DNA of 57,660 nt, filler included, from Basidiobolus ranarum (lineage: Eukaryota), in NCBI GenBank assembly GCA_040143965.1. It is 6 parts of 6 records of this genome, joined end to end, with 100 filler letters (N's around TTAATTAATTAA, not from the genome) between each part and the next. Parts side by side here need not be neighbours in the genome. Positions count along the whole stretch, not along the records: positions 19,280 to 28,808 come from JASJQH010007688.1; 5 more parts are not named here. One strand, written 5' to 3'. The position numbers were made by a program, and so were the translations under genes. Positions 1,718 through 28,908 of the stretch are shown here, one piece after another; position 1 is the stretch's first letter; each line of letters starts with the position of its first letter. A model generated the notes under the pieces. The model ran no database searches, was not told the DNA's origin, and worked only from the letters and a program-made list of their open reading frames with translations.

Positions 1718-2018
1718 GTTGTAGATTTTCTTGCCATCAGCTTCCAATAATATGTTTTGATAATGCAGTTTCTCCGTACAATAAAACCATAGTTATTTCA
1801 ATATTTAAAATAAATCTCACCATTGTATGTATCTCAAAGATGACTCAATCTGACATTTTCTCTACCATGTGTGATTCATATACAAGCCAACAATCATGGA
1901 ACGATTTTGGCTCCATTCTCGGTGCTGCGTAAATGCAATTTCGTACAAAATCCTAAATGGCAATCTAAAATTAATAACATTTCGAATCTTCCTCAGAAAT
2001 TCTTGTTTACTTCATACC

Positions 2019-3548
2019 ATGAGCGATAGCTACACTCTACATATTCCCAACAATGGTGAAAAGAGTATATTGAATGTATTTGACTTTGACAATACTTTAT
2101 TCCGCTCGCCCATACCTAATCCAAAACTATGGGACTCCTCATTGCTTGGTCCGTTAACTGCGTTTCAACAAATTAATAACGGTTGGTGGCATGATATAAG
2201 GAGTTTACAGCTGGGTGAGGAAGTTGAGAATAGTATGTGGGAAGGATGGTGGATTGAGGATGTGGTAATTATTTTCAATACTTTATTTACTTACTTCAAC
2301 ATATTTATTTTGTTGCTTTAATAGGTGAGCAAGGTCCGTCAATCAATGGAAGATCCTCAAAGTCTTACGGTTCTCTTGACAGGAAGAGTACGGGATATAT
2401 TTGAAGACCAAATATTGAGAATGGTTGCTTCTAAAGGGCTGATATTTGATCTAGTTATCTTGAAGTATCCTATACATTATGATCAAGTTCGACTTTCTGG
2501 CGAAGAATCCCACTCTACTACAAGCTTTAAAAAATCAATTGTGGAGGGGATCATCACTCAAAACCCTAGTATAAAGCATGTGCATATGTGGGAAGATAGA
2601 CCAACCCATGTTCTGAAGTTTCGAGAGGCGATAGCTGAAATGATTGCTTGTGGGAGAATACAAAACGGGTCAGTGATTCAAGTGCTGGACCCACCCTCGT
2701 ATATGCCTGAATCGGTTGAAAAAAGAACGGTTTTTGATATGGTCAATGAACATAATAGTTTTGCAGAGGACTGGCTTAAAGTGAACTTCAATAAGCAATT
2801 GCCTGCTGGTGCTCAAATACCCAAAAAAATAGAATTGAACACTCATGTGAAGTATACTGGTGTATTTTTCTCTCAAGATATTACCGACTTCATACTGGAC
2901 AGATACTTGCCACTATTGACAAATGATGTTAATATTTCACATTGGACTGTCTCCGCTGACCATGTCACCATGTGTTTGTTTCGATGCCCGGAACCGATGT
3001 TAGATAAAAGCGGAGGAATAGGAGCTTTGGTTTATGTAAAAGTTTTGGCTATTGGCCAATATGAGAATCGGGTTTGGGCTCTTAAAGTTGGTGAAGTCTC
3101 TATGCCAGATGAAAATACAGAATGTTGCGACAATATACCGACAAATACTCAAGAGTCTTGCGCAAACATCGGCCATTTGGTATCAAATAACCCCATACCG
3201 CACATAACTGTAGTATACGATCAAACACAAGGAGCAAAAGCAAATGAAAGCAATCTAATCACTGACTGGCGAGACTTACCTCCCAGCAAGCAGCACATAC
3301 TCGGAGGGACTATTCAGGAAAAAATAATTACAGGCATCAAAAAGGCACCCTCCCCCCCTCCTCCAACCAAAGCGGCAGTAAGTTTGGGTACTCTTATCAA
3401 GCAACACTACCCTGAAATTAAGGGGCCAGAAATAGGGAAGATGGTCAAGTTTGTGCAGTTACGGATGTCTGAATCTGGAATCACCAACTCTAAAGATAAT
3501 GAAGATAGAATCACTACACTTATTGTTACAGCTCCAGCTATGGAATAG
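2019..3548 (+). CDS. HAD-superfamily 'Swiss Army Knife' RNA-repair-like phosphatase with C-terminal 2H-phosphoesterase-like region; join(2019..2264,2325..3548)
   Basis: HAD motif I VFDFDNTLFRSP, motif II LLTGR, motif IV WEDR; later HVT and PHIT motifs; phase-0 GTAATT...ATAG intron joins the two ORFs. Confidence 0.8.
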
Positions 3549-3696
3549 CCACGACAAATAAAATCATCATCGTTCAAAATAATAGCAGTGAAGGGGGTTC
3601 AATTTGGAGCAAAAATAACGAAGGGAAACATACGATTGATGTAATGTGTGGATGTCTTTTATTAGATAGTATAGCATAGTAAAACATATAAGATGT

Positions 3697-4216
3697 TTAC
3701 AAACGACGACCACGACGACCACCCTTTCTACGAGTGCTATCGGTGGGGATAGGAGTAACATCCTCAATACGACCAATTCTCATACCAGCTCTGGCCAAAG
3801 CACGGAGAGCAGATTGGGCTCCGGGGCCGGGGGTCTTGGGACCATTACCACCAGTGGCACGAATCTTGATATGAAGAGCAGTGATACCGAGTTCCTTACA
3901 ACGAACAGCAACATCTTGGGCGGCCAACATAGCAGCGTAAGGAGAAGACTCATCACGATCAGCCTTAACCTTCATACCACCAGTAACACGAACCATAGTT
4001 TCACGGCCAGTTAAATCAGTAACGTGGACAAAGGTATCGTTGAAGGAGGCAAAGATGTGAGCAACACCGAAGACGAGTTCACCCTCACGAACTTGGGGGC
4101 CAAGGGATACGGTTTCTTGAACCTTGGTAACTTTTCCGGCTTTCTTAGACTAGAGAGTTGCAACAAGTCGTTAGTGAGTGTATATACAGATGAAACCAAG
4201 ATAATGAACTAACCAT
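3697..4216 (-). CDS. RPS14: 40S ribosomal protein S14 (uS11); join(4214..4216,3697..4149)
   Basis: [21 protein letters not shown]...[19 protein letters not shown]...[20 protein letters not shown] intron with CTAAC branch point. Confidence 0.97.
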
Positions 4217-4622
4217 GCTGAAGGATGGACGGATGAAAGGTCAAGCCTAATGATGGATTCGACCAAAAATGCAAGAGGAAGTGACAATAATCGATCCGAG
4301 TGTTGTTAAACTATCGAATGGTCATGATCAGAGACAGGGGACTGAATAAAAAAAATCCAAATCAGATTGTTGTCATTAACCAAACTAACTTTGCTAGAGT
4401 GGCAACTCGTGCTTAATCAACTAGTTATCCACATTAACATTAACAGGGCTAGCACAATCATATGCACAGTTATACAAGATATGAAAATTTTATTTGATCT
4501 AGCAGTTGATTGGGTATACCAGGGGTAGATTGAAAGTCCCAACAGAAGTCGAATAAAATATGTTAGCTAGGAGGTAGAAGCGTTCTTTCTCGTTACCGCT
4601 TAAGTCGCACGGTCTATCCACA

Positions 4623-7466: not shown

Positions 7467-8199
7467 CAATAAAGCCTGGCTAATTGAATGTATGATCCGC
7501 AATGCAACTACCTATATTGGAACTTTCCACCACACCATAATTGTACCTCCATTGAACTCGCTATTTATTCACAACAGTTAAAGTCATAGTAGTCGCGTAT
7601 AGTTACTTCTATACACACATGTTCAAACTTATCCTGAGAATTTGAAGATTTTTGAATTGGATTTATTTTCTAGAATGACTACGTAGCACTAAAATATCTA
7701 TCTCATCACGATTAAAGTTTCAATCCAATGGAATGGTAATAAATTGTTGGAACCAACTATTGAACAGTAAGCAGAGTAGATTTTGGTCAGCTCTGCTTCT
7801 TTGAGTTCTATTTTTTCTTCAAGCCATCCTAAAGGTAAGCTATTGGATCTCTATGTGTGCACTCAGTTTTATTACCAACTCAATCTTGATGATTAATACA
7901 TCAAAGCCAAGAATATATTCCCCAGTTTAATGGCTAATACCTAGAAGTGCCATTTGAAAGTTTTATTCAGATACTGTAGGAGCTCTGATTAGCTAGTCTC
8001 TACCAAATTTACTAACTGATTATGTGAACAAAAATAGAAGTGTCAAGCTTTATGCAAGACACTTGATCAATATGAATTTTGAAAAACATTTGCTGATCTT
8101 GAATCTATTCTGCAACTTGAGATTATAGCTTGAGGTAAATCAAAATTGTAACATACATTGGAGTTGTTGGGAAAAGCAGCATTTTGTAACCAGTCTATG

Positions 8200-9548: not shown

Positions 9549-9648
9549 NNNNNNNNNNNNNNNNNNNNNNNNNNNNNNNNNNNNNNNNNNNNTTAATTAA
9601 TTAANNNNNNNNNNNNNNNNNNNNNNNNNNNNNNNNNNNNNNNNNNNN
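9549..9648. other. Artificial contig spacer
   Basis: N44-TTAATTAATTAA-N44 (stops in all six frames). Confidence 0.98.
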
Positions 9649-19179: not shown

Positions 19180-19279
19180 NNNNNNNNNNNNNNNNNNNNN
19201 NNNNNNNNNNNNNNNNNNNNNNNTTAATTAATTAANNNNNNNNNNNNNNNNNNNNNNNNNNNNNNNNNNNNNNNNNNNN
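19180..19279. other. Artificial contig spacer
   Basis: N44-TTAATTAATTAA-N44. Confidence 0.98.
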
Positions 19280-20710
19280 TTTAATTCCCCTTCCCCTTCC
19301 CCTCTCACCCTCCCCCACTTTGACGAAAAGGTTTTATCTACATCCTGTTGTATCATAGAATTGCTTACAAATAATCTTCTTTGCACTATATGATTTTTTT
19401 AAAAAAGGTTCATTCCATTTCCGATTAAAATCGATGATTATATTCTCTTATCAAAGGACCCATCCACATAATTCTGCTCGTGACAATGACAGACCTCTCC
19501 GCGTGTAACAAGTTGAAGTATAGATTTCGAGGGTTTCAAGGGGGAATAGTGTGGGTGCAGATAAAAATAACCTTAATGGTATATAAAAGTGATCCTTATG
19601 TGCATGCAGATGAGCTGCGAATCCAACCATATTACAAATCAAAGAGGTTGTATCATCACTCGCCAACACGGATATTCATATCCTAGAGGGATATGTATGA
19701 TATGTGAGGTTGAATGATTGGATTCACTTCAGATGTCGTGGTCATATTAAAGCTCTCTATGTTCATGCAAGCGCCTATTTGATATACATTCTGGATGTGG
19801 ACGCGCTCAAATAGAATATTAATTTCATTGTTGCTGCTAAGAGATCTGCTAGGAGTCTTCTATCCACTACTGCTTAATTCAACCATTCTAAACGAAACAG
19901 TCTGTAATGATGATGGATGTTGATACATATATCACATGTAAAAAATCAAGACAGCTATATTCCGTGACATACTGGTGCCGAAATTCATCCCACAAAAAGC
20001 AGACTTAAGATCTAGTCAAATGCCCCAGATCTTCCAAGTGGAAGCCCACTGATCAGTGATTAGAATCTACATCAAAGAATAGAAATGAAAAAAAATTCCC
20101 ATATGTACTTTTTTAACTGGATTACTTGGTTCATTTCTAGAAAGAAGGAGATTATCCAAGTGAATGTTATATTTGAATGATCTTTCATATCATCTGTGAA
20201 TACCAAGGATCTTGTTGTTAATGGTCAGGTATTATCTTGTCTAATGGGATGGTTGTTGTTTATCTCTACTTGACAAGGATCGGGATCTTCTCACATAATC
20301 TGATCGACCCATTTTTCATTTGGTTTAATTCAATATTTCGTTAACTTGAAACCATCTGGATTTCTTCTTGCCAGGTTATATTAGAAACAGGTGGTCATGG
20401 TCATTAGTAACAACTAAATGGATCCACAAATCAATCTGATTCTAAGGTTTCCTTGGAATGGCATAAACCGCTTCGGATTTCAAATCGAACTCCGATACCT
20501 TCAGGACTTGAGTGAGGTGGGGGTATAGGAAACTTAGTGAGATAAATAGAAGCATCAAGACCGTGACCGAGGTGAATTCTGGTTAGAATCATGTAAGTGT
20601 AGAATAATAATAATAATATGGATTTTATTTATATATATAAAATTACCCTAAATCTGAAGACTGTGTTTGTAGTTCTGATAATAAAAAGTTGGTGAAAATA
20701 CTGGTGGAGT

Positions 20711-23384
20711 TCATGTGTTTTTGAAATCACTCATTATCTCTACAACGCCAATATTATACTGTTGTTCAATTACAAATTCCATATTAATATCTGTTGTTGG
20801 AGAATCTTGGGAGTCAACGCCTGTGGTATCGGTGACATTACGTAAGAGCTCTTCCTTTAAATTCTTACTCTCTTGTTTCATTTGAATGTCTACCCAACTA
20901 GGTATAGAGCTCACTAGCTTCCCAGCAACCGTACGGAATACTAAGAAAAGGTGCTCTGCAACAACAGCAAAGATGGCAGCATAAACGATATGTGTATATT
21001 CAAGATTCTCCCATGTATGTGGATCGTTTGACATATCGCCAAAGTTTCGAAATTGATAAATAAACAAGGTATTGACAATGGTCCCTAACCACGCTAAGAA
21101 TTCCTATAAATGTATACATATATATATATTGCATTAGTAGTATACCATTGACGAAGGATAAACAAGCACGTACCATCGTACGCTTCCAAGGACCGATACT
21201 TTCTGCTCTGATTGGAATAGGTCGCCTTTTACCATGGGGATAAACAAGTTAGATTTGAATAGAATATCTCAAAATCAACTGAATATGTTTACTTAGTTCG
21301 AAAGCAAATTTTAACAGCGTCCGATCTAGTCTCGACCCATACGCATGCCAACACTGCCAATGGAGCCAGAGGCCATACACTCGTGAATAGACATACCGAT
21401 CCAAACTGGAATTTATGGAATGTTTCTAGGTAAGTAATTTATCGGCTAACTCAATGGAATTTTCTCTTCAGTGTATACCTGTGTTGTCATATCGACAAAA
21501 TCCCCATAGATGTCATAATCAGGAAGTTTACTTTCAGTTACAACACTCTCGATGAATCGTTGCTCATCGGCATCCTCACGGCCGCGGTGACGTCTGACGA
21601 CAGACTTGATCTTCCTCTTGTAATAAGAAAGAGCCCTCTTTCCTATTGGAATAAAGAACCCTGAGATCAAACTCTTAACATGGATGGTGAGCATAATTTG
21701 AGTGATCAATCTGGATGGGCCAAAACGAATATCAAGGCGTTCAAGAGCCAACTGGTTCTTAATCCAAAAGGCAAGATCATCACCGAACGGAATAAATACC
21801 CAAGCGACAAGAAATACCGAAGCATAAGTCAGGAGAAAGCTAATAATGAAGATTTTGTAGGTAAGATTGGAGTGATATTTCGTTTCGGTGGCGTAGTTCT
21901 CAAAATCATTCAGACGTATGGCAAATCTTCTATACATCTTGATCAACTGAGGTATAGAGACAGAATAAACCGCAACGGACCCATATTTCTACGAAGTATA
22001 TAGATTGTTAGCTTCTCGTCTAGACAAATAGCCTCACGAATAAAGTTGGCTTACAAAGAATTTCTTGAATGGTCCATGATAATACTCTCTGACCATGAAC
22101 TCAACAAAAAAGGTTGCTGAAATAACCGACATGAGGAGGAATGCAAAAGCAATAATCAACGGCGCTGCAAGTAGTTTTCGGAGCCAGCGTTTCCAGTGGG
22201 GGAAGTAATGAATGGTTTTTCCAGTAACCGGGTCGTATCTTTTGTCCGTAGACTTAAACTGTGGTCGGAGTTCTTCTACTCTTCGGCAATTACTTACTGA
22301 CCATCGGGCTGCCCAATTTCTCTCTTTCCAGCTCCAAAATGCCAAGAAAAACACGGACCATATGCAAGTGAGTAAGGAGAGGATTATGGAAAAATGGATG
22401 GAAAAGAAGGAGGCAGCAGCTCCAATCGCAGCTAAGGGAATAAGTCCTAAGAAGTAGTACTTGAGAAATGCAAAGTAAAATGCAATCTTTACGATACATG
22501 AAGTACCATCAATGTCAGCTGCTGTGTCCAGCTAATTCAAGTATATACAAGTGAGGAATGATTTACCTTTTCGCCAAACTCATCCCGCAGCTGAGTGAGA
22601 TCTTGTTTGCTAACTTGCCAGGTAGTCCCCCATGACAGTAACCATTTCTGTAGGGATTTGAAATATTGAGATTTAGTGAAGAATACAAGAAATAGAGTGA
22701 AGATTTGTATAATAATACTTCATTGAATTTTCGATTATGAAGTGGAAAGACAGACTCCACAAAGTTTTCCCCGGGAATTATCCCAGCATATCCCTCGTCT
22801 ATTGATCCGGTTAGTAGCTGATACTCAACACGATGCCTCTCAGCAGTAGTGGGAACCTGGCTATTAATAACTTTCCAAGGTTCACTTGTTTCTTTTGAAT
22901 AGTTCTTTCCGGTGATATGGAGTCCAGCAAGCCAGTCTTTAACTCTATAATATGCAGATCTTGTTAATAAATCACAAGAGATAACTAAAAATTCAGTATA
23001 AGAAACTACGTTGGTAGAGAAATACCTATTTAACCGATATTTGGTGTTTATTTTATCACCAGGACACAGTATAAAAACTAGTAAGCTCTTTGGATCGCCT
23101 TTTCTTACTTCGCACAACAATCCAGCATTTTGGATCCGCTCAAGCATACTCCGAAAAGCCGAAGTAACTTTTTCTTCTAGCTGTACTCTTTCTGCACGAG
23201 TAGACTCAACTGGAGGAGTAGGATATCGAAAAACAATCACAAAATCAGCGAAGAAATCAGTTAAGTTTGATTCTATTTGCTGCTTATGATATTTCATAAA
23301 GAGAAAGGAGTCAGTATCATGTGAAGCCTTTCTAAACTTCAGTGTGTTGACAGTGGTGTCAACGAGTTCACGGAACTGCTCCAT
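20711..23384 (-). CDS. Anoctamin/TMEM16 (Ist2-like) Ca2+-activated channel/scramblase, multi-exon
   Basis: DFVIVF...VFPLHN, EFGEKIAFYFAFLKYY, FLAFWSWKE...W, LNDFENYATETKY, DYDIYGDF, RRPIPIRAESIGPW, VVAEHLFL motifs. Confidence 0.92.
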
Positions 23385-23753
23385 GGTTAAGCTAGAGGTT
23401 TGCGAGACTAGAATGGAAGTTTAGAGGCTTTTCTTATCAGCGTCCTTGTTCATGACGTCAGTTTCATCAAAAAAAGAGGAAACCGTCACCAACTTTAGCA
23501 AGCTGTATTTGGCATTCCAAAACTGCTTAAATAAGAAGTCCATGTGTTTTGAAATTTATTATATCGAAGTCTGAAAAACTATCGCATACACTAGTTATCC
23601 TGCATAATTGTTACGTATGGGAAATACTAGATGCAAAACATAGCCAATCATACCTTCTGAACGGACTCCAAGGATTGAAAGAAATTTCGAATATTCATGG
23701 AAGATTTGTTATTACTCGTTTTCTCTCCAAGCTCCACATCTTATTTCTGACAA

Positions 23754-24528
23754 ATGGGTAAGTTGCCAAGTGACAGCAAAGTGAATATAACTTCTTCTAA
23801 CTAACCTGTATTGACAACGTTTAGCGGCGCCACAACAACAACAACTCCAGGCTTGGTTCCAAGCTGTTGATGTGTATGTGTTCTTAGTTCGCAGCCTACT
23901 TGTTCTCTAAACTAATTTAGCTTGAAAATGTTTTAGCGATCACAGCGGAGGAATCAGCGCAGATGAGCTTCAAAAAGCTCTCTTGAATGGTAACTTGTAC
24001 AATTAATATTTACGACTAGATGATACTAATCTTACACTATATTGCTTATTAGGCGACTGGAGCCCATTCAATATCGAAACTGTACGTATGATGATCAACA
24101 TGTTCGACAGAGATGATAACGGCACTATCAACTACCAAGAGTTCTGTGGTCTCTGGAAGTACATCGAAGACTGGAAAAGATGCTTCATGGGTTTTGATAA
24201 AGATCAGAGTGGGTCCATCGATCAAAATGAACTAAAAAACGCTATGATTACATTTGGCTACAACCTGAGTGATAAATTTCTTTCCATGATGATTCGTAAA
24301 TACGACAAAAAGGGTAAGTATCCATTGCTATACTTTCTAATGCAAGCGGGGCCACTTATACAGTCGTAAATTCTAGGTACCGGCAATATTACCTTCGACA
24401 ACTTCATCCAAGTCAGCGTCACCGTAAGAACTCTAACCGACTCTTTCAGAAGATTCGATACTGATTCCGATGGTTGGGTCACCATCAACTATGAACAGTT
24501 CATGGAGCTCGTTGTTAGTAGTCGCTAA
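23754..24528 (+). CDS. PEF1: Penta-EF-hand Ca2+-binding protein (Pef1/ALG-2 family), multi-exon
   Basis: MAAPQQQQLQAWFQAVD.DHSGGISADELQKALLNGDWSPFNIETVRMMINMFDRDDNGTINYQEFCGLWKYIEDWKRCF...FDTDSDGWVTINYEQFM. Confidence 0.92.
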
Positions 24529-25354
24529 GCATTTTTGATAACTTTTGTTAAGGCTACTTGTAGACTCTACGTTGTTTTCTTTGCGGTTACACGAATAAAT
24601 CGTATATTTCTCATTTGAACATAGTTACTTTTGAATGAGCAGCTGAGCAATCCACCATTAATTGTATGCAACCTATGTTTTAAAAAGAGTTGTGAAGCCA
24701 GATTCTAATGCGATCATCGGAATTAGAAAGCCGAGCTAACCCACGAATTAAGATGCAAATTTCTATAGAAACTGTCGAGACACCTAGCCATCAATACATA
24801 TCATTGCTGCATACGATTACCAAGGTTACACTGGGTACACAAACTAAAGTGCATATACTCTAAGTTGTATGCTCTACCATCTCGACAAACAAAATACAAT
24901 GGAGTGAATACGGAAACGGTATCCATTCACGAACTCTGGTAATTCATACACAACCCACCTATGTCATATGATTTATCAATTCATTTGTTGGCCAGTAGAA
25001 GACAAATCAAATCTATGCTTTTATACTAGCAAGATATCCTAATTTACCTGGAGCCTAAAATCCCAAGGTTCGTATCACATGTCACTAAGCCATATGCAAA
25101 TGCTCAGTGTGGGAATCAGATCGCCACGGCCACCAATCACCTGAAAGACAATGATAAGTAATAATGCAATGACGCCAATAGGGAGAGCTTGGTGCAAGTG
25201 CAAACCAATCTAGAAAAGTTGCTTGAAGGGAAAGGCCTAGGCGAAGACCAACCCTTTATTTACCATAGAGAACATTAGGAAAACGAAATGCAGTATTGTC
25301 TATTAACATACACGAATGAATGGATTTATATTGACAGTGTGTAGGTGTGAGATA

Positions 25355-27562
25355 TCAAGACACTTGGAATGGTTCCCGACTTGGAATAGGAGAAAGGATG
25401 CTCGGATACTCGGATTGTACCAAATCAATGATCTCTCGAGTATCTTGTGGGCGATGCTTGATCTGGTTCAGAAGTGTTTGTAAGGATTTCGAGCTAGGTT
25501 TGATCCCGCATTCCTTCAACTCCGTCGTAAACACACGCTTGGCTTCATTGAATGATTCAAACTTACACAGAGCCTCAATGTAAGAGTTGAAGTTATTTTC
25601 GCTTAGTGGAAATCGGGCATCCTTTAAGTTGGACCAGGTGATCTTCAATGCTTCAAGATCACCGTTGACTCCACACGAGTCTAGTAAAATAGAGACATGG
25701 GCGGAAAGTTGTTTCGTGGGAAACGTTTTCCTAGCAATGTTCCATAATTCCAATATTTTTGCTTTATCTCCAACGAAGCTATGGAAATTCATCAACACTC
25801 CATATGTAATCGCATCGGGTACGAGACGTTGATCTATTAACTCGTGGTAGAAAGGTAGGACTTGCTCTAGCTTGAAGTTCACGAGACACCCATGCATTAT
25901 TATGTTATATGTACTAGTAATCAGCGGAATCTTGCTTTCTTTCATCTGTTCAAACATACCAACTGCTCTGTCAAAGCTAGAGCTTTTCATATAACCATCA
26001 ATCAGACAGTTATATGTAAGGGTGTTTGGTCGGAGACCAACAGTTTTCATCTCCTCAAATAGTGAAATGGCTTTGTCCATATTGGACTGCTTGCCAAAGC
26101 CATTTATCAAGGTAGTATATGTTTTCACATTAGGTGCTACTTGATATGGCTTCATAGACTCAAAGAGGTTCTGCGCTTGATCGAGGTCTCCAACTTTAGC
26201 GTAGCCATCGATAAGTGTTGTAAAAGTAACAACATCTGGCGTAAGGTTTCGGCTTAGAATCTCTTCAAATGTTTTGCTTGCCTCTTGCATTTCTTGTGAA
26301 TTGGAGAAGGCATAAATAAGGGAGTTAAGAATCGCAGTATCTGGCACAAGTTTTCGTGAAAGCATGTGTTGATATAACTCGAGTGAATGTTGAACGTCCG
26401 AGTTTTTAGCAAATGCGCTGATAAGAATGCTGTAGGTTATTTCGTTCGGAAGAATATCTTCCGCTAGCATACGTTTGTAGTAACTCATTGCCCTACTCAG
26501 ATCCTGATTCAGAGCAAAGCCCTGGATCAATGTGGAGTAGGTGACGACGTTGGGGGTGATTCCGCGTTCAAGCATTTCTTCAAACAGTGCTACTGCTTCA
26601 TCTAAACGAGATTTTCGTCCATATCCTTTGATAAGAATAGAATATGTCCATATGTTTGGTGAGTGTCCAAAATGGATCATATCATTATAGGCATCTCTTG
26701 CCTGCTCTAGTTTCCCCTGGTTGATCAATAAATTAATGAATACCGAGAAAGAAGTGACGTCCGGGACAATATCTTGCTCCATCATCTCTTTGTATATTTC
26801 TTGAGCCTGGCTACTGTTTGAGCTTCTAGCACAGGAATTCAGCATTAAAGAGTAAGTCTCATCGTTTGGTGATATTTGGAACTTCTTCATGTCAAAATAT
26901 ACACTCGAAACTTGGTTGAATTGTTGGTGCTTGCTTAACATTTTCATGACGGCATTATAAGCATAAGTGTTTGGTATGATGTCTTGTTGAAGCAACATCT
27001 GGTACAGTTGATACGTTGGTAATGGAGAGCTTCGCTTGAGGTTTACTATAAGTTCAATGTATAGATCTGGAGTGAGCTTAAGCCCCTTTTGAAGCATTCT
27101 TTGTAATATTTCCTCGACACATTTTACATTGCCACTTTTTGCATGATATAAAACCAAGGTACTATACTCTGTAATAGAAATCAATTCTACATCGTTTCGC
27201 TCGATATAAGTAATTATCCGTCGACATCGTTCAACTGTATTCGGATCCCTTCCTTTTTCAATTAAACGTAGTAGAAGAGTGATCTGTTTAGAAGGTAAGA
27301 TCTTCACCTGACCATGCTCGTAGAATTCACTAAATATTTTCCAGGCTTTAACTGAGTCGCGACGACGTATAGCTGCATCAAAATTGGGAGTTTGTGGTGA
27401 TTTGGAAGCCAGTTTGTTGTATCCGGAAGTCAACCGAACCTGGTTTCTCGAAACCAACAGTAATGGTGGTAAGGGTCGGAGTAAACGTTGGCCTTGGAGG
27501 TTTCTCTGAACTAGAGTAAAGATGCCACGCCCCAAAGCCGGCACTCGCCCAAGCTGGGACAT
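25355..27562 (-). CDS. Pentatricopeptide-repeat (P-class PPR) protein, probably mitochondrial
   Basis: 735-aa ORF with tandem 35-aa repeats (PNVVTYSTLIQGFA, PDVVTFTTLIDGYAK...); Arg/Leu-rich acid-free N-terminus. Confidence 0.95.
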   Translation of the reverse strand: MSQLGRVPALGRGIFTLVQRNLQGQRLLRPLPPLLLVSRNQVRLTSGYNKLASKSPQTPNFDAAIRRRDSVKAWKIFSEFYEHGQVKILPSKQITLLLRLIEKGRDPNTVERCRRIITYIERNDVELISITEYSTLVLYHAKSGNVKCVEEILQRMLQKGLKLTPDLYIELIVNLKRSSPLPTYQLYQMLLQQDIIPNTYAYNAVMKMLSKHQQFNQVSSVYFDMKKFQISPNDETYSLMLNSCARSSNSSQAQEIYKEMMEQDIVPDVTSFSVFINLLINQGKLEQARDAYNDMIHFGHSPNIWTYSILIKGYGRKSRLDEAVALFEEMLERGITPNVVTYSTLIQGFALNQDLSRAMSYYKRMLAEDILPNEITYSILISAFAKNSDVQHSLELYQHMLSRKLVPDTAILNSLIYAFSNSQEMQEASKTFEEILSRNLTPDVVTFTTLIDGYAKVGDLDQAQNLFESMKPYQVAPNVKTYTTLINGFGKQSNMDKAISLFEEMKTVGLRPNTLTYNCLIDGYMKSSSFDRAVGMFEQMKESKIPLITSTYNIIMHGCLVNFKLEQVLPFYHELIDQRLVPDAITYGVLMNFHSFVGDKAKILELWNIARKTFPTKQLSAHVSILLDSCGVNGDLEALKITWSNLKDARFPLSENNFNSYIEALCKFESFNEAKRVFTTELKECGIKPSSKSLQTLLNQIKHRPQDTREIIDLVQSEYPSILSPIPSREPFQVS

Positions 27563-27785
27563 GGTTGTTAGTAGCTACCAAGGAGGTAAATTTTTCGGTT
27601 TTGTTTGGGGTGAGCACCACTAGACTATTATCCTGAAATCGCCGTCAAATAGCTCGGTAGAGTTGCATGAACAAAATTTGATTCATAGAAAATTTCCAAG
27701 TGTTTGGGAAAACAATGTATGATTTAAAATCAACTATTTAAAAGTGATTGGGGATATACTGTATCTTGGATTAGTGTAGCGGTAA

Positions 27786-28808
27786 CTACAAAGGATGGGT
27801 TGGTTTTTTAGCGGGTCGACTACTACTAACTAATGAGACCCCCTTTCTTTTAGAACTTGTGGAGGGAGCTGCCTTCAGTCTGCAAAATCGCTCTGGTCTT
27901 TTGCCGTTTTCACGCATCCCAAAAAGAATATTCGTTTTTTTGGCTTGCATATAAAAAGCTTTTACCTTAAAAGGCCATGGCATGTTACAGTGGGATTCTT
28001 TTCTCTTTTAAAAGGTCTCAGGTCCTGTACTTCTTTGAATATTTCAAGCTCGCCGTTTCCACAGACAGGACACAAGCTAGAAGCTTTGAACTCATCAAGG
28101 AGGTATACCTGGAAGCCCTCTTTTGCTAGCATTCTTATTCTAATGCCTCTAATGGGCTCATGAAACTTCACATTTCCGACAGTCCAGTTGCCGATTATTA
28201 TCACAGCATCATCGCCGAACTTTTTCTGAAGATTCCTGGCTAGTCGTTTGTCTGATTGCTGTCGATTTATAAAGCTTGAAAGTTTCATTTTTCGGAATGG
28301 CAGCAAATTACTTTCTCGGTTTTCTGCAGCAGGGACATCTTCGTTTGAATAATACTTTTTCAGGACCAGCGTGGCTTTGGCTCTCTCCTGGAGGTACTTG
28401 ACAAACTTTTCTCCATTGACTGTTGAAGATTTATGATCCGACAATGATAACTCGGCAGCTACAACTTCATCAGGCTTCAAGTTCTCACGGAGTTTCTTGA
28501 ATTTTCTGGATTTGGTTTCAATAGCTCTTTGATTGCTAGTGTATCGGTATGTCCTTTTCTTTTCTACAGTACTTTCTTCGTGCATGCAGTAGAGCATGTC
28601 GCGTCGACCAGGATCGATCAACACACACTTGCCGACACCAGCCAAGAGTTCTTCTTTTTCCAACTTATCAACATACTGAAATTCTTCGACTTCTTTTTTT
28701 TTCTACTAGCACCACCACTACTACCTTTCTTCGTATCATAGTTTTGCTTCAACACAGACACACCAACACCATCAGTAAGCAACATGCCCCTAAACTTCAT
28801 TGCATTCC
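27786..28808 (-). pseudogene. Fanzor1 (eukaryotic TnpB-like RuvC nuclease), C-terminal half; frameshifted, RuvC-III segment missing, 5' end cut by contig edge
   Basis: FRGMLLTDGVGVSVLKQ; CVLIDPGRRDMLYC (RuvC-I); FRKMKLSSFINRQQSD; VIIIGNW; LLDEFKASSLCPVC (shifted RuvC-II Glu plus CxxC); VTCHGLLR; C-terminal ILFGMRENGKRPERFCR. Confidence 0.88.
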
Positions 28809-28908
28809 NNNNNNNNNNNNNNNNNNNNNNNNNNNNNNNNNNNNNNNNNNNNTTAATTAATTAANNNNNNNNNNNNNNNNNNNNNNNNNNNNNNNNNNNN
28901 NNNNNNNN
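28809..28908. other. Artificial contig spacer
   Basis: N44-TTAATTAATTAA-N44. Confidence 0.98.

Follow-up and report, generated by a model that had tools for sequence, protein, structure and literature searches.

The minus strand of positions 28808–27786 very probably carries the 3' ~1 kb of an inactivated Fanzor1 gene that belongs to a Rhizopus-like subfamily of the Mucorales-type Fanzor1 elements, a reading to which we assign a probability of about 0.88 on the basis of sequence comparison. Positions are those of the window, by which we mean the whole stretch of 57,660 bases that was analysed, and the coordinates of the gene and of its parts are given in reading direction along the minus strand. 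Elements of this kind are known already: Fanzor1 families of Mucorales have been in print since 2013, when Bao and Jurka described those of Rhizopus oryzae, Mucor circinelloides and Phycomyces (PMC3627910), and the Fanzor1 protein of Parasitella parasitica (PpFz1) has been solved and its cutting of DNA shown (PMC11423790). The window copy is best regarded as a degraded member of a known family, with little significance by itself. An earlier note on this DNA had spoken of a Fanzor1 nuclease locus; the derivation from Fanzor1 holds, but the gene is not intact, being cut at contig end 28808, shifted in frame at a run of A residues and short of 138 nt.

The make-up of the window bears on how the upstream limit of the gene is to be read. 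Five identical linkers (N44-TTAATTAATTAA-N44) were found at positions 9549–9648, 19180–19279, 28809–28908, 38432–38531 and 48050–48149. The 57,660 bases are therefore not continuous genome and consist of six separate contigs of 9548, 9531, 9529, 9523, 9518 and 9511 bp, arranged by decreasing length, so that adjacency across a linker is meaningless and any feature that ends at a linker is an assembly cut. In the protein database, the PPR protein encoded by the third piece is assigned to a contig of 9529 bp, the very length of that piece. The Fanzor remnant occupies the extreme end of the third piece (19280–28808, 9529 bp), where the artificial linker at 28809–28908 separates two contigs and the gene is cut at 28808. 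Because the upstream loss coincides with this contig end, the absence of roughly the N-terminal half of the protein, to which the WED/REC domains belong, is an assembly limit and not a shown biological truncation, and the remnant serves as a warning that apparent truncations at the linkers of a joined window are not biology.

Fanzor1 identity and relatives

Seven motifs had been listed in a given order by the earlier note, and all seven were located in that order on the minus strand, from 28776 to 27879: TDGVGVSV (28776–28753), the RuvC-I motif IDPGRRD (28618–28598), FRKMKLSSFINRQQ (28297–28256), IIIGNW (28201–28184), DEFKASSLCPVC with the alternative Glu and the first CxxC (28096–28061), CHGLLR (27982–27965) and RPERFCR (27899–27879). 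What had gone unmentioned is that these motifs are distributed over three reading frames, the longest open stretch being one of 246 codons (frame 28702–27962). A tblastn comparison with nine full-length relatives showed that the window covers only about residues 209–577 of one of them, P0001, in three pieces (28803–28696, 28693–27965 and 27932–27789); no other segment of the 57.7-kb window was matched by these nine proteins.

The most upstream coding piece retained (AMKFRGMLLTDGVGVSVLKQ..., 28808–28696) is in the first of the three frames and was recognized by tblastn with P0001, whose residues 209–253 fall on 28800–28669, and with P0002, whose residues 156–191 fall on 28803–28696. It begins at about residue 207 of the 577-aa P0001, a gene model that is itself N-terminally short. 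The main open stretch (28693–27965), which is part of the 246-codon frame and is supported by phmmer, tblastn, alignment and dN/dS, contains RuvC-I, IIIGNW, the alternative Glu with the first CxxC, and CHGLLR, and is 72% identical to both P0001 and P0002 (tblastn). The C-terminal tail (NILFGMRENGKRPERFCR...THPL, 27932–27786) lies in the third frame and ends with the normal stop of the family, TAG at 27788–27786; by tblastn it is 69% identical to residues 466–512 of P0002 and 55% identical to residues 529–577 of P0001. The RPERFCR tail noted previously is hence present, but it stands beyond a deletion and in another frame.

Searching all PDB sequences with the 246-aa frame by phmmer returned exactly two proteins, PpFz1 (9cf0, E=4.6e-61) and the Fanzor1 of Spizellomyces punctatus, SpuFz1 (8gkh, E=8.7e-27), with the blocks DPGRRD, GNW and DEF..SS.CP.C aligned. 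These values place the seven motifs far beyond chance and bear out the Fanzor1 identity that had been proposed from the motifs. A family profile run against the PDB reached the same two Fanzor1 proteins only, the 9cf0 match being in this case partly by construction since P0040 was included in the profile; neither the single-sequence nor the profile searches with HMMER gave similarity to any solved TnpB or Cas12. Pfam yielded only a sub-threshold match for the fragment, to the Cas12f1-like TNB / OrfB zinc-ribbon (E=0.047; 14.3 bits, where the cut-off is 26.3), and nothing at E<=0.01 for P0001 or P0040, in a Pfam copy that did not contain the family model PF26935.

Of 3893 candidates in the protein database, 116 proved to be homologues longer than the fragment (E<=0.001), and of 689 further candidates 104 proved to be homologues of similar length (E<=1e-30); their sources were almost all Mucorales (Rhizopus, Helicostylum, Gilbertella, Pilaira and others), Kickxellales (Coemansia) and Basidiobolus. 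Rhizopus proteins came closest, with 66–78% identity, and none exceeded 78%. A quick maximum-likelihood tree, built from the fragment and 57 proteins picked from 220 hits by genus spread and coverage, placed the fragment within a group of 17 rows (SH-aLRT 90, not starred) whose other members are Rhizopus copies, two fragments from Basidiobolus and one from Phycomyces; this group is nested in a starred 35-row clade (support 98), and PpFz1 falls outside that clade. Three database proteins (P0303, P0319 and P0336) labelled Basidiobolus ranarum, a fungus outside the Mucorales, are degraded Fanzor1 fragments with 66–77% identity to the window fragment, and two of them nest among Rhizopus copies in the quick tree (support 88–94), a placement that could be due either to contamination or to the element having been transferred horizontally.

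DNA for comparison came from metagenome contigs, in which a scan gave 207 pattern matches and four confirmed related loci (L001–L004); among these, L001 (4815 bp) encodes P0001 at 99.6–100% identity. The Rhizopus-type copies (P0001, P0002 and P0004, with 66–78% protein identity; L001, with 75.9% DNA identity) have in common with the window copy the position and 5' sequence of an intron after HGLL(R), the C-terminal tail and the context of the stop codon, and they are its neighbours in the tree. The window copy differs from them by the loss of 138 nt, in which the zinc ribbon's second half and RuvC-III are encoded, by its frameshift and by being cut off where the contig ends. PpFz1 (PDB 9cf0–9cf3; PMC11423790), reported as a DNA endonuclease that is guided by an omegaRNA and whose TAM in vitro is 5'-ATN (PMC11423790), is ~47% identical to the window copy and, unlike it, intact; RuvC-I DPGRRD, GNW, the alternative Glu and the first CxxC are aligned between the two. 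The alignment runs in two stretches that skip an insertion of ~60–100 residues in PpFz1, which is probably the FRI (Fanzor RuvC insertion) domain. SpuFz1 (PDB 8gkh and others) is a much more distant relative that matches over frame residues 25–245, its catalytic and zinc-ribbon motifs standing in the same order, and it keeps the third catalytic Asp, D606, which is deleted in the window copy.

Prokaryotic TnpB (IS200/IS605, IS607) is described as having the same superfamily architecture, with a RuvC domain split by the zinc ribbon (PMC3627910; PMC10711439). The window copy is set apart from it by the DPG and alternative Glu fingerprints, which are reported for <1% of TnpB-family homologues (PMC10711439), and by its eukaryotic intron and fungal context. 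In prokaryotic TnpB the canonical RuvC-II Glu stands ~50 residues ahead of the zinc ribbon, RuvC-I has the form D-hydrophobic-G, and the setting is that of an IS200/605 or IS607 element; the window does not show these traits.

The catalytic site and its lesions

According to the published descriptions, Fanzors have replaced the canonical RuvC-II Glu with Gly or Pro and use an alternative Glu (PMC10530073), and their fingerprints are DPG in RuvC-I and an alternative Glu positioned six residues before the first CxxC, in the pattern ExxxxxxCxxC (PMC10711439). In the fragment the RuvC-I catalytic Asp lies within DPG, IDPGRRD being aligned to MDPGRRD of PpFz1 and IDPNKRD of SpuFz1, and the alternative Glu, E204, is followed by six residues and then by C211-x-x-C214 in DEFKASSLCPVC. 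Among 14 sequences D203 and E204 are invariant, and G171, N172 and W173 occur in >=90%. From the conservation of GNW we infer, in agreement with the earlier note, that G171 of IIIGNW takes the canonical RuvC-II position. The rearranged RuvC site that the earlier note had claimed is, on the same footing, consistent with the sequence (IDPG, G171, and E204 ahead of CxxC) and with the two reports just cited.

The third catalytic residue of Fanzor1 has been described as an Asp on the helix after the zinc ribbon, D606 in SpuFz1 (PMC11423790), and the family motif given by Bao and Jurka, D-x-[TS][TS]-x-x-C4 zinc finger-x(5,50)-RD, ends in RD (PMC3627910). In the window copy the C4 zinc ribbon (TNB domain) is incomplete, with only the first Cys pair, CPVC, present; the second pair, which is CKNQQC in relatives, belongs to the missing 138 nt. 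Nowhere in the window did tblastn reveal a counterpart to the WNRD of relatives that holds the RuvC-III Asp, and the DNA alignment shows this part to be deleted. Intact relatives carry both CKNQQC and WNRD within the missing stretch.

Two lesions interrupt the reading of the gene. The first is a frameshift zone (28709–28692) with an A9 run at 28702–28694, where the tblastn matches on either side are in different frames and the net change relative to L001 is -1 nt; pairwise alignment to L001 places +6 nt at 28709–28704 and -7 nt after 28692. The shift could be a homopolymer sequencing error. The second lesion affects an intron. When the DNA is read unspliced, a TAA stop (27964–27962) follows directly after CHGLLR, and what remains from 27965 to 27930 (GTAAAAGC...) is the beginning of a conserved intron, as evidenced by its alignment to the first ~31–36 nt of the intron of L001. 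The latter is a 59-nt GT..AG intron (L001 positions 4038–4096) located directly after HGLL(R), at the same codon as the intron remnant of the window. A short intron at this place is common to the window, L001, L003 and L004 (~441–470 in the last), while the more distant L002 is without it and continues as CHGLLRCTNQNC. The database proteins P0004, P0010 and P0014 end at or just past HGLLR; these are probably gene models that read into the unspliced intron.

The intron remnant is broken off by a deletion whose junction lies at 27934–27929 and which removes 138 nt relative to L001 (~4069/4074 to 4211), as determined from the DNA alignments and tblastn. It appears as a 138-column gap in a three-way DNA alignment and as gaps of 105 and 33 nt in the pairwise alignment to L001; since L001 is only 75.9% identical in DNA (800/1054 aligned bases), the breakpoints are approximate. 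Lost are the 3' end of the intron, the 3' splice site and ~115 nt of exon 2 that encode CKNQQC...RRLWNRDMAATLNFRQ, and with this part of exon 2 the second zinc-ribbon Cys pair and the Asp of RuvC-III 'NRD'. At the protein level, ~38 residues (about 491–528 of P0001) were without counterpart in the window by tblastn, and the sequence resumes past the deletion at ...ILFGMRENG. A splice that joins the retained GT (27965) to the AG preceding 27881 was considered as an alternative; it would be in frame yet would still lack RuvC-III, and does not rescue the gene.

Judged from its sequence, the copy as assembled cannot encode an active nuclease because the third catalytic Asp, the second Cys pair and the 3' splice site are deleted and the frame is shifted by 1 nt. 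With a catalytic residue and half of the zinc ribbon gone, it is not an editing candidate. Degraded copies with internal deletions are common in the family: P0319 and P0336 have such deletions, and L004 is frameshifted and diverges inside the same intron, near where the deletion of the window copy begins. In working relatives, Fanzor1 is an omegaRNA-guided, TAM-dependent double-stranded DNA endonuclease borne on cut-and-paste transposons, and its split RuvC site is made up of the Asp in 'DPG', the alternative Glu that precedes the zinc ribbon by six residues and the Asp in 'NRD'. The window copy retains the first two catalytic residues and has lost the third Asp with the 138-nt deletion; the deletion and the 1-nt frameshift would together have inactivated it, probably recently, if the lesions are, as we take them to be, real and not assembly errors.

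The ends of the element and the stop-codon block

In L001, a near-complete Rhizopus-type copy, terminal inverted repeats of 135 nt (1721–1855 and 4446–4580; 89% complementary) flank the Fanzor ORF in a compact element spanning 1721–4580. Both repeats begin with TATAGTGTTTTAATC... (TATAGTG...), a TA (or TATA) duplication being inseparable from the repeat, and the resemblance between L001 and L003 ends at ~4580–4598. Between the repeats no ORF of >=70 aa was found except Fanzor, and no transposase gene; L001 looks like one of the non-autonomous, Fanzor-only elements that Bao and Jurka described (PMC3627910). A 9-bp, MuDR-like target duplication, as reported for ROr-4 (PMC3627910), was looked for at the ends of L001 and not seen. 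The superfamily of L001 is possibly Tc1/mariner. By analogy with L001, the parent element of the window copy would have had terminal inverted repeats as well. The Fanzor ORF of L001 has a frame change of its own in a T-run near 2430 (overlapping frames), and upstream of the element an open frame (L001 positions 1–906) gives a weak tyrosine recombinase match (Pfam Phage_integrase, E=6.4e-4, below the cut-off); this frame may belong to a Crypton- or DIRS-like element beside the Fanzor element.

Downstream of the stop codon, the window stays similar to L001 for ~40 nt, after which the similarity breaks off. The remaining spacer (27749–27563), which leads up to the start codon of the neighbouring PPR gene, is without detectable similarity to the L001 terminal repeat: when the 135-nt repeat was sought downstream of the window copy, the best match was 21 nt of AT-rich sequence with a score of 20, which was rejected as chance. 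Within the window, other copies or MITE-like repeats of 27560–28808 were not found beyond chance matches of 12–24 nt, a second Fanzor copy was detected neither by tblastn nor by the repeat search over all 57.7 kb, and no omegaRNA, terminal repeat or transposase could be identified for the window copy. Since the L001 repeat match is absent downstream and the region is unrepeated in the window, the element has no defined right end here, and its left end lies off the contig. The earlier note had put the 3' end ~220 bp upstream of the PPR start; the distance is correct, at 223 nt from TAG (27788–27786) to ATG (27562–27560), but it marks the stop of the ORF and not a demonstrated end of the element.

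A block of DNA is conserved across the stop codon itself (27796–27750; local match to L001). Over this local match (L001 positions 4350–4392), 38 of 42 nt agree with L001, as against 75.9% for the whole alignment, and the core of the block, GTAGTTAnCGCT, is also kept in L002 (~3120–3150), the protein of which is 42% identical. A possible 6-bp hairpin at 27790–27775 is paired in 18/18 cells with one compensatory change, a count that comes from three sequences only, was equalled by 155 of 500 shuffles and is not significant. The fold z-scores of the block are weak (-1.6, -1.8 and -0.7), and Rfam returned 0 matches on the whole window. We regard it as unlikely that the block is a functional RNA module of this Fanzor1 subfamily, for example a start or processing site of the guide RNA, through which the remnant could supply RNA to intact Fanzor proteins elsewhere in the genome. 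The omegaRNA (reRNA) of a Fanzor1 element is expected at its right end, with the guide extending beyond that end. Where such elements have terminal repeats, these and the target duplication have been reported to form part of the guide-RNA scaffold (PMC10711439); a repeat-derived scaffold of this kind would put the guide RNA of L001 downstream by another ~220 nt, and this speaks against the hairpin as its first stem. The remnant nonetheless documents both the subfamily-specific intron and the conserved stop-codon block.

Age of the inactivation and rival explanations

Over 243 codons of the main frame, the comparison with L001 gave a dN of 0.167, a dS of 1.73 and hence a dN/dS of 0.097, a ratio that is rough because dS against L001 is saturated; over 47 codons of the tail, dN/dS was 0.39. 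Across ~330 retained codons there is no in-frame stop besides the two lesions. These values show that most of the divergence from L001 was accumulated under purifying selection, and with a dN/dS of 0.097 over 243 codons, the inactivation is therefore probably recent. The lineage would have carried a selected, presumably active Fanzor1 until recently; if the inactivation is recent, intact relatives elsewhere in the same genome are plausible, and the low dN/dS makes a full-genome search for intact copies reasonable.

An open main frame of 246 codons with a low dN/dS is also what an active gene would show. On that ground the copy could be an intact, potentially active Fanzor1, its frameshift and 138-nt gap being artefacts that arose when a repeated element was sequenced or was assembled into fragmented, short contigs. 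The element does lie at a contig end, where the assembly of repeats is least reliable, the frameshift does fall in the A9 run, and an assembly artefact could in principle account for the gap. Nevertheless, the 138-nt loss is clean, with good alignment on both sides, it is situated outside a homopolymer and ~875 nt inside the contig edge, and comparable damage recurs in the family (L004, P0319 and P0336), all of which makes an intact gene quite improbable. An inactivated gene could also have been kept for a secondary role, as promoter or 5' regulatory DNA of the PPR gene 223 nt downstream or as the source of a non-coding RNA from the stop-codon block. Its orientation is the same as that of the PPR gene and it is close to the PPR ATG, the block is better conserved than the coding DNA, and the hairpin can be paired in every cell. 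The pairing, however, is no better than in the 155 shuffles and is drawn from three sequences, the fold z-score is only -1.6, Rfam finds nothing, and in a fungal genome, which is compact, chance alone would be expected to bring a remnant close to a gene; we consider it very improbable that the remnant has been retained for such a purpose.

That the motifs are a chance resemblance, or come from a prokaryotic TnpB contaminant instead of a eukaryotic Fanzor, has next to no probability. The Pfam search did give no more than a sub-threshold match (E=0.047) to the Cas12f1-like TNB / OrfB zinc-ribbon, and the PDB profile search reached no TnpB or Cas12. This origin is refuted by the PDB match, with E=4.6e-61 to a solved Fanzor1, and is further opposed by the spliceosomal-type intron in common with L001 and by flanking genes of fungal or at least eukaryotic character, namely PPR and anoctamin genes on the same contig and that of a Velvet factor on another piece. 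The gene content of the window marks the host as a fungus, and the relatives of the Fanzor point to a lineage that diverged early. The reading as an inactivated Rhizopus-like Fanzor1 gene is the one that we prefer.

The claim of a neighbouring PPR gene was confirmed: a single-exon gene of 735 aa (27562–25355) lies downstream on the same strand, is not part of the element, and matches Pfam PPR_2 with E=7.7e-113 in 11 stretches. Besides its own record, the candidates scored were at most ~32% identical to its protein, those from plants (PPR proteins) and Basidiobolus ranking highest; this is weak evidence, as the word-based candidate selection was saturated at 8000 candidates. The same contig carries an anoctamin/TMEM16 gene (23420–21446, minus strand) with at least three exon-sized open frames, and on other pieces of the window there are genes for ribosomal protein S4e, a Velvet factor, SBDS, a cyclin and an RRM protein.
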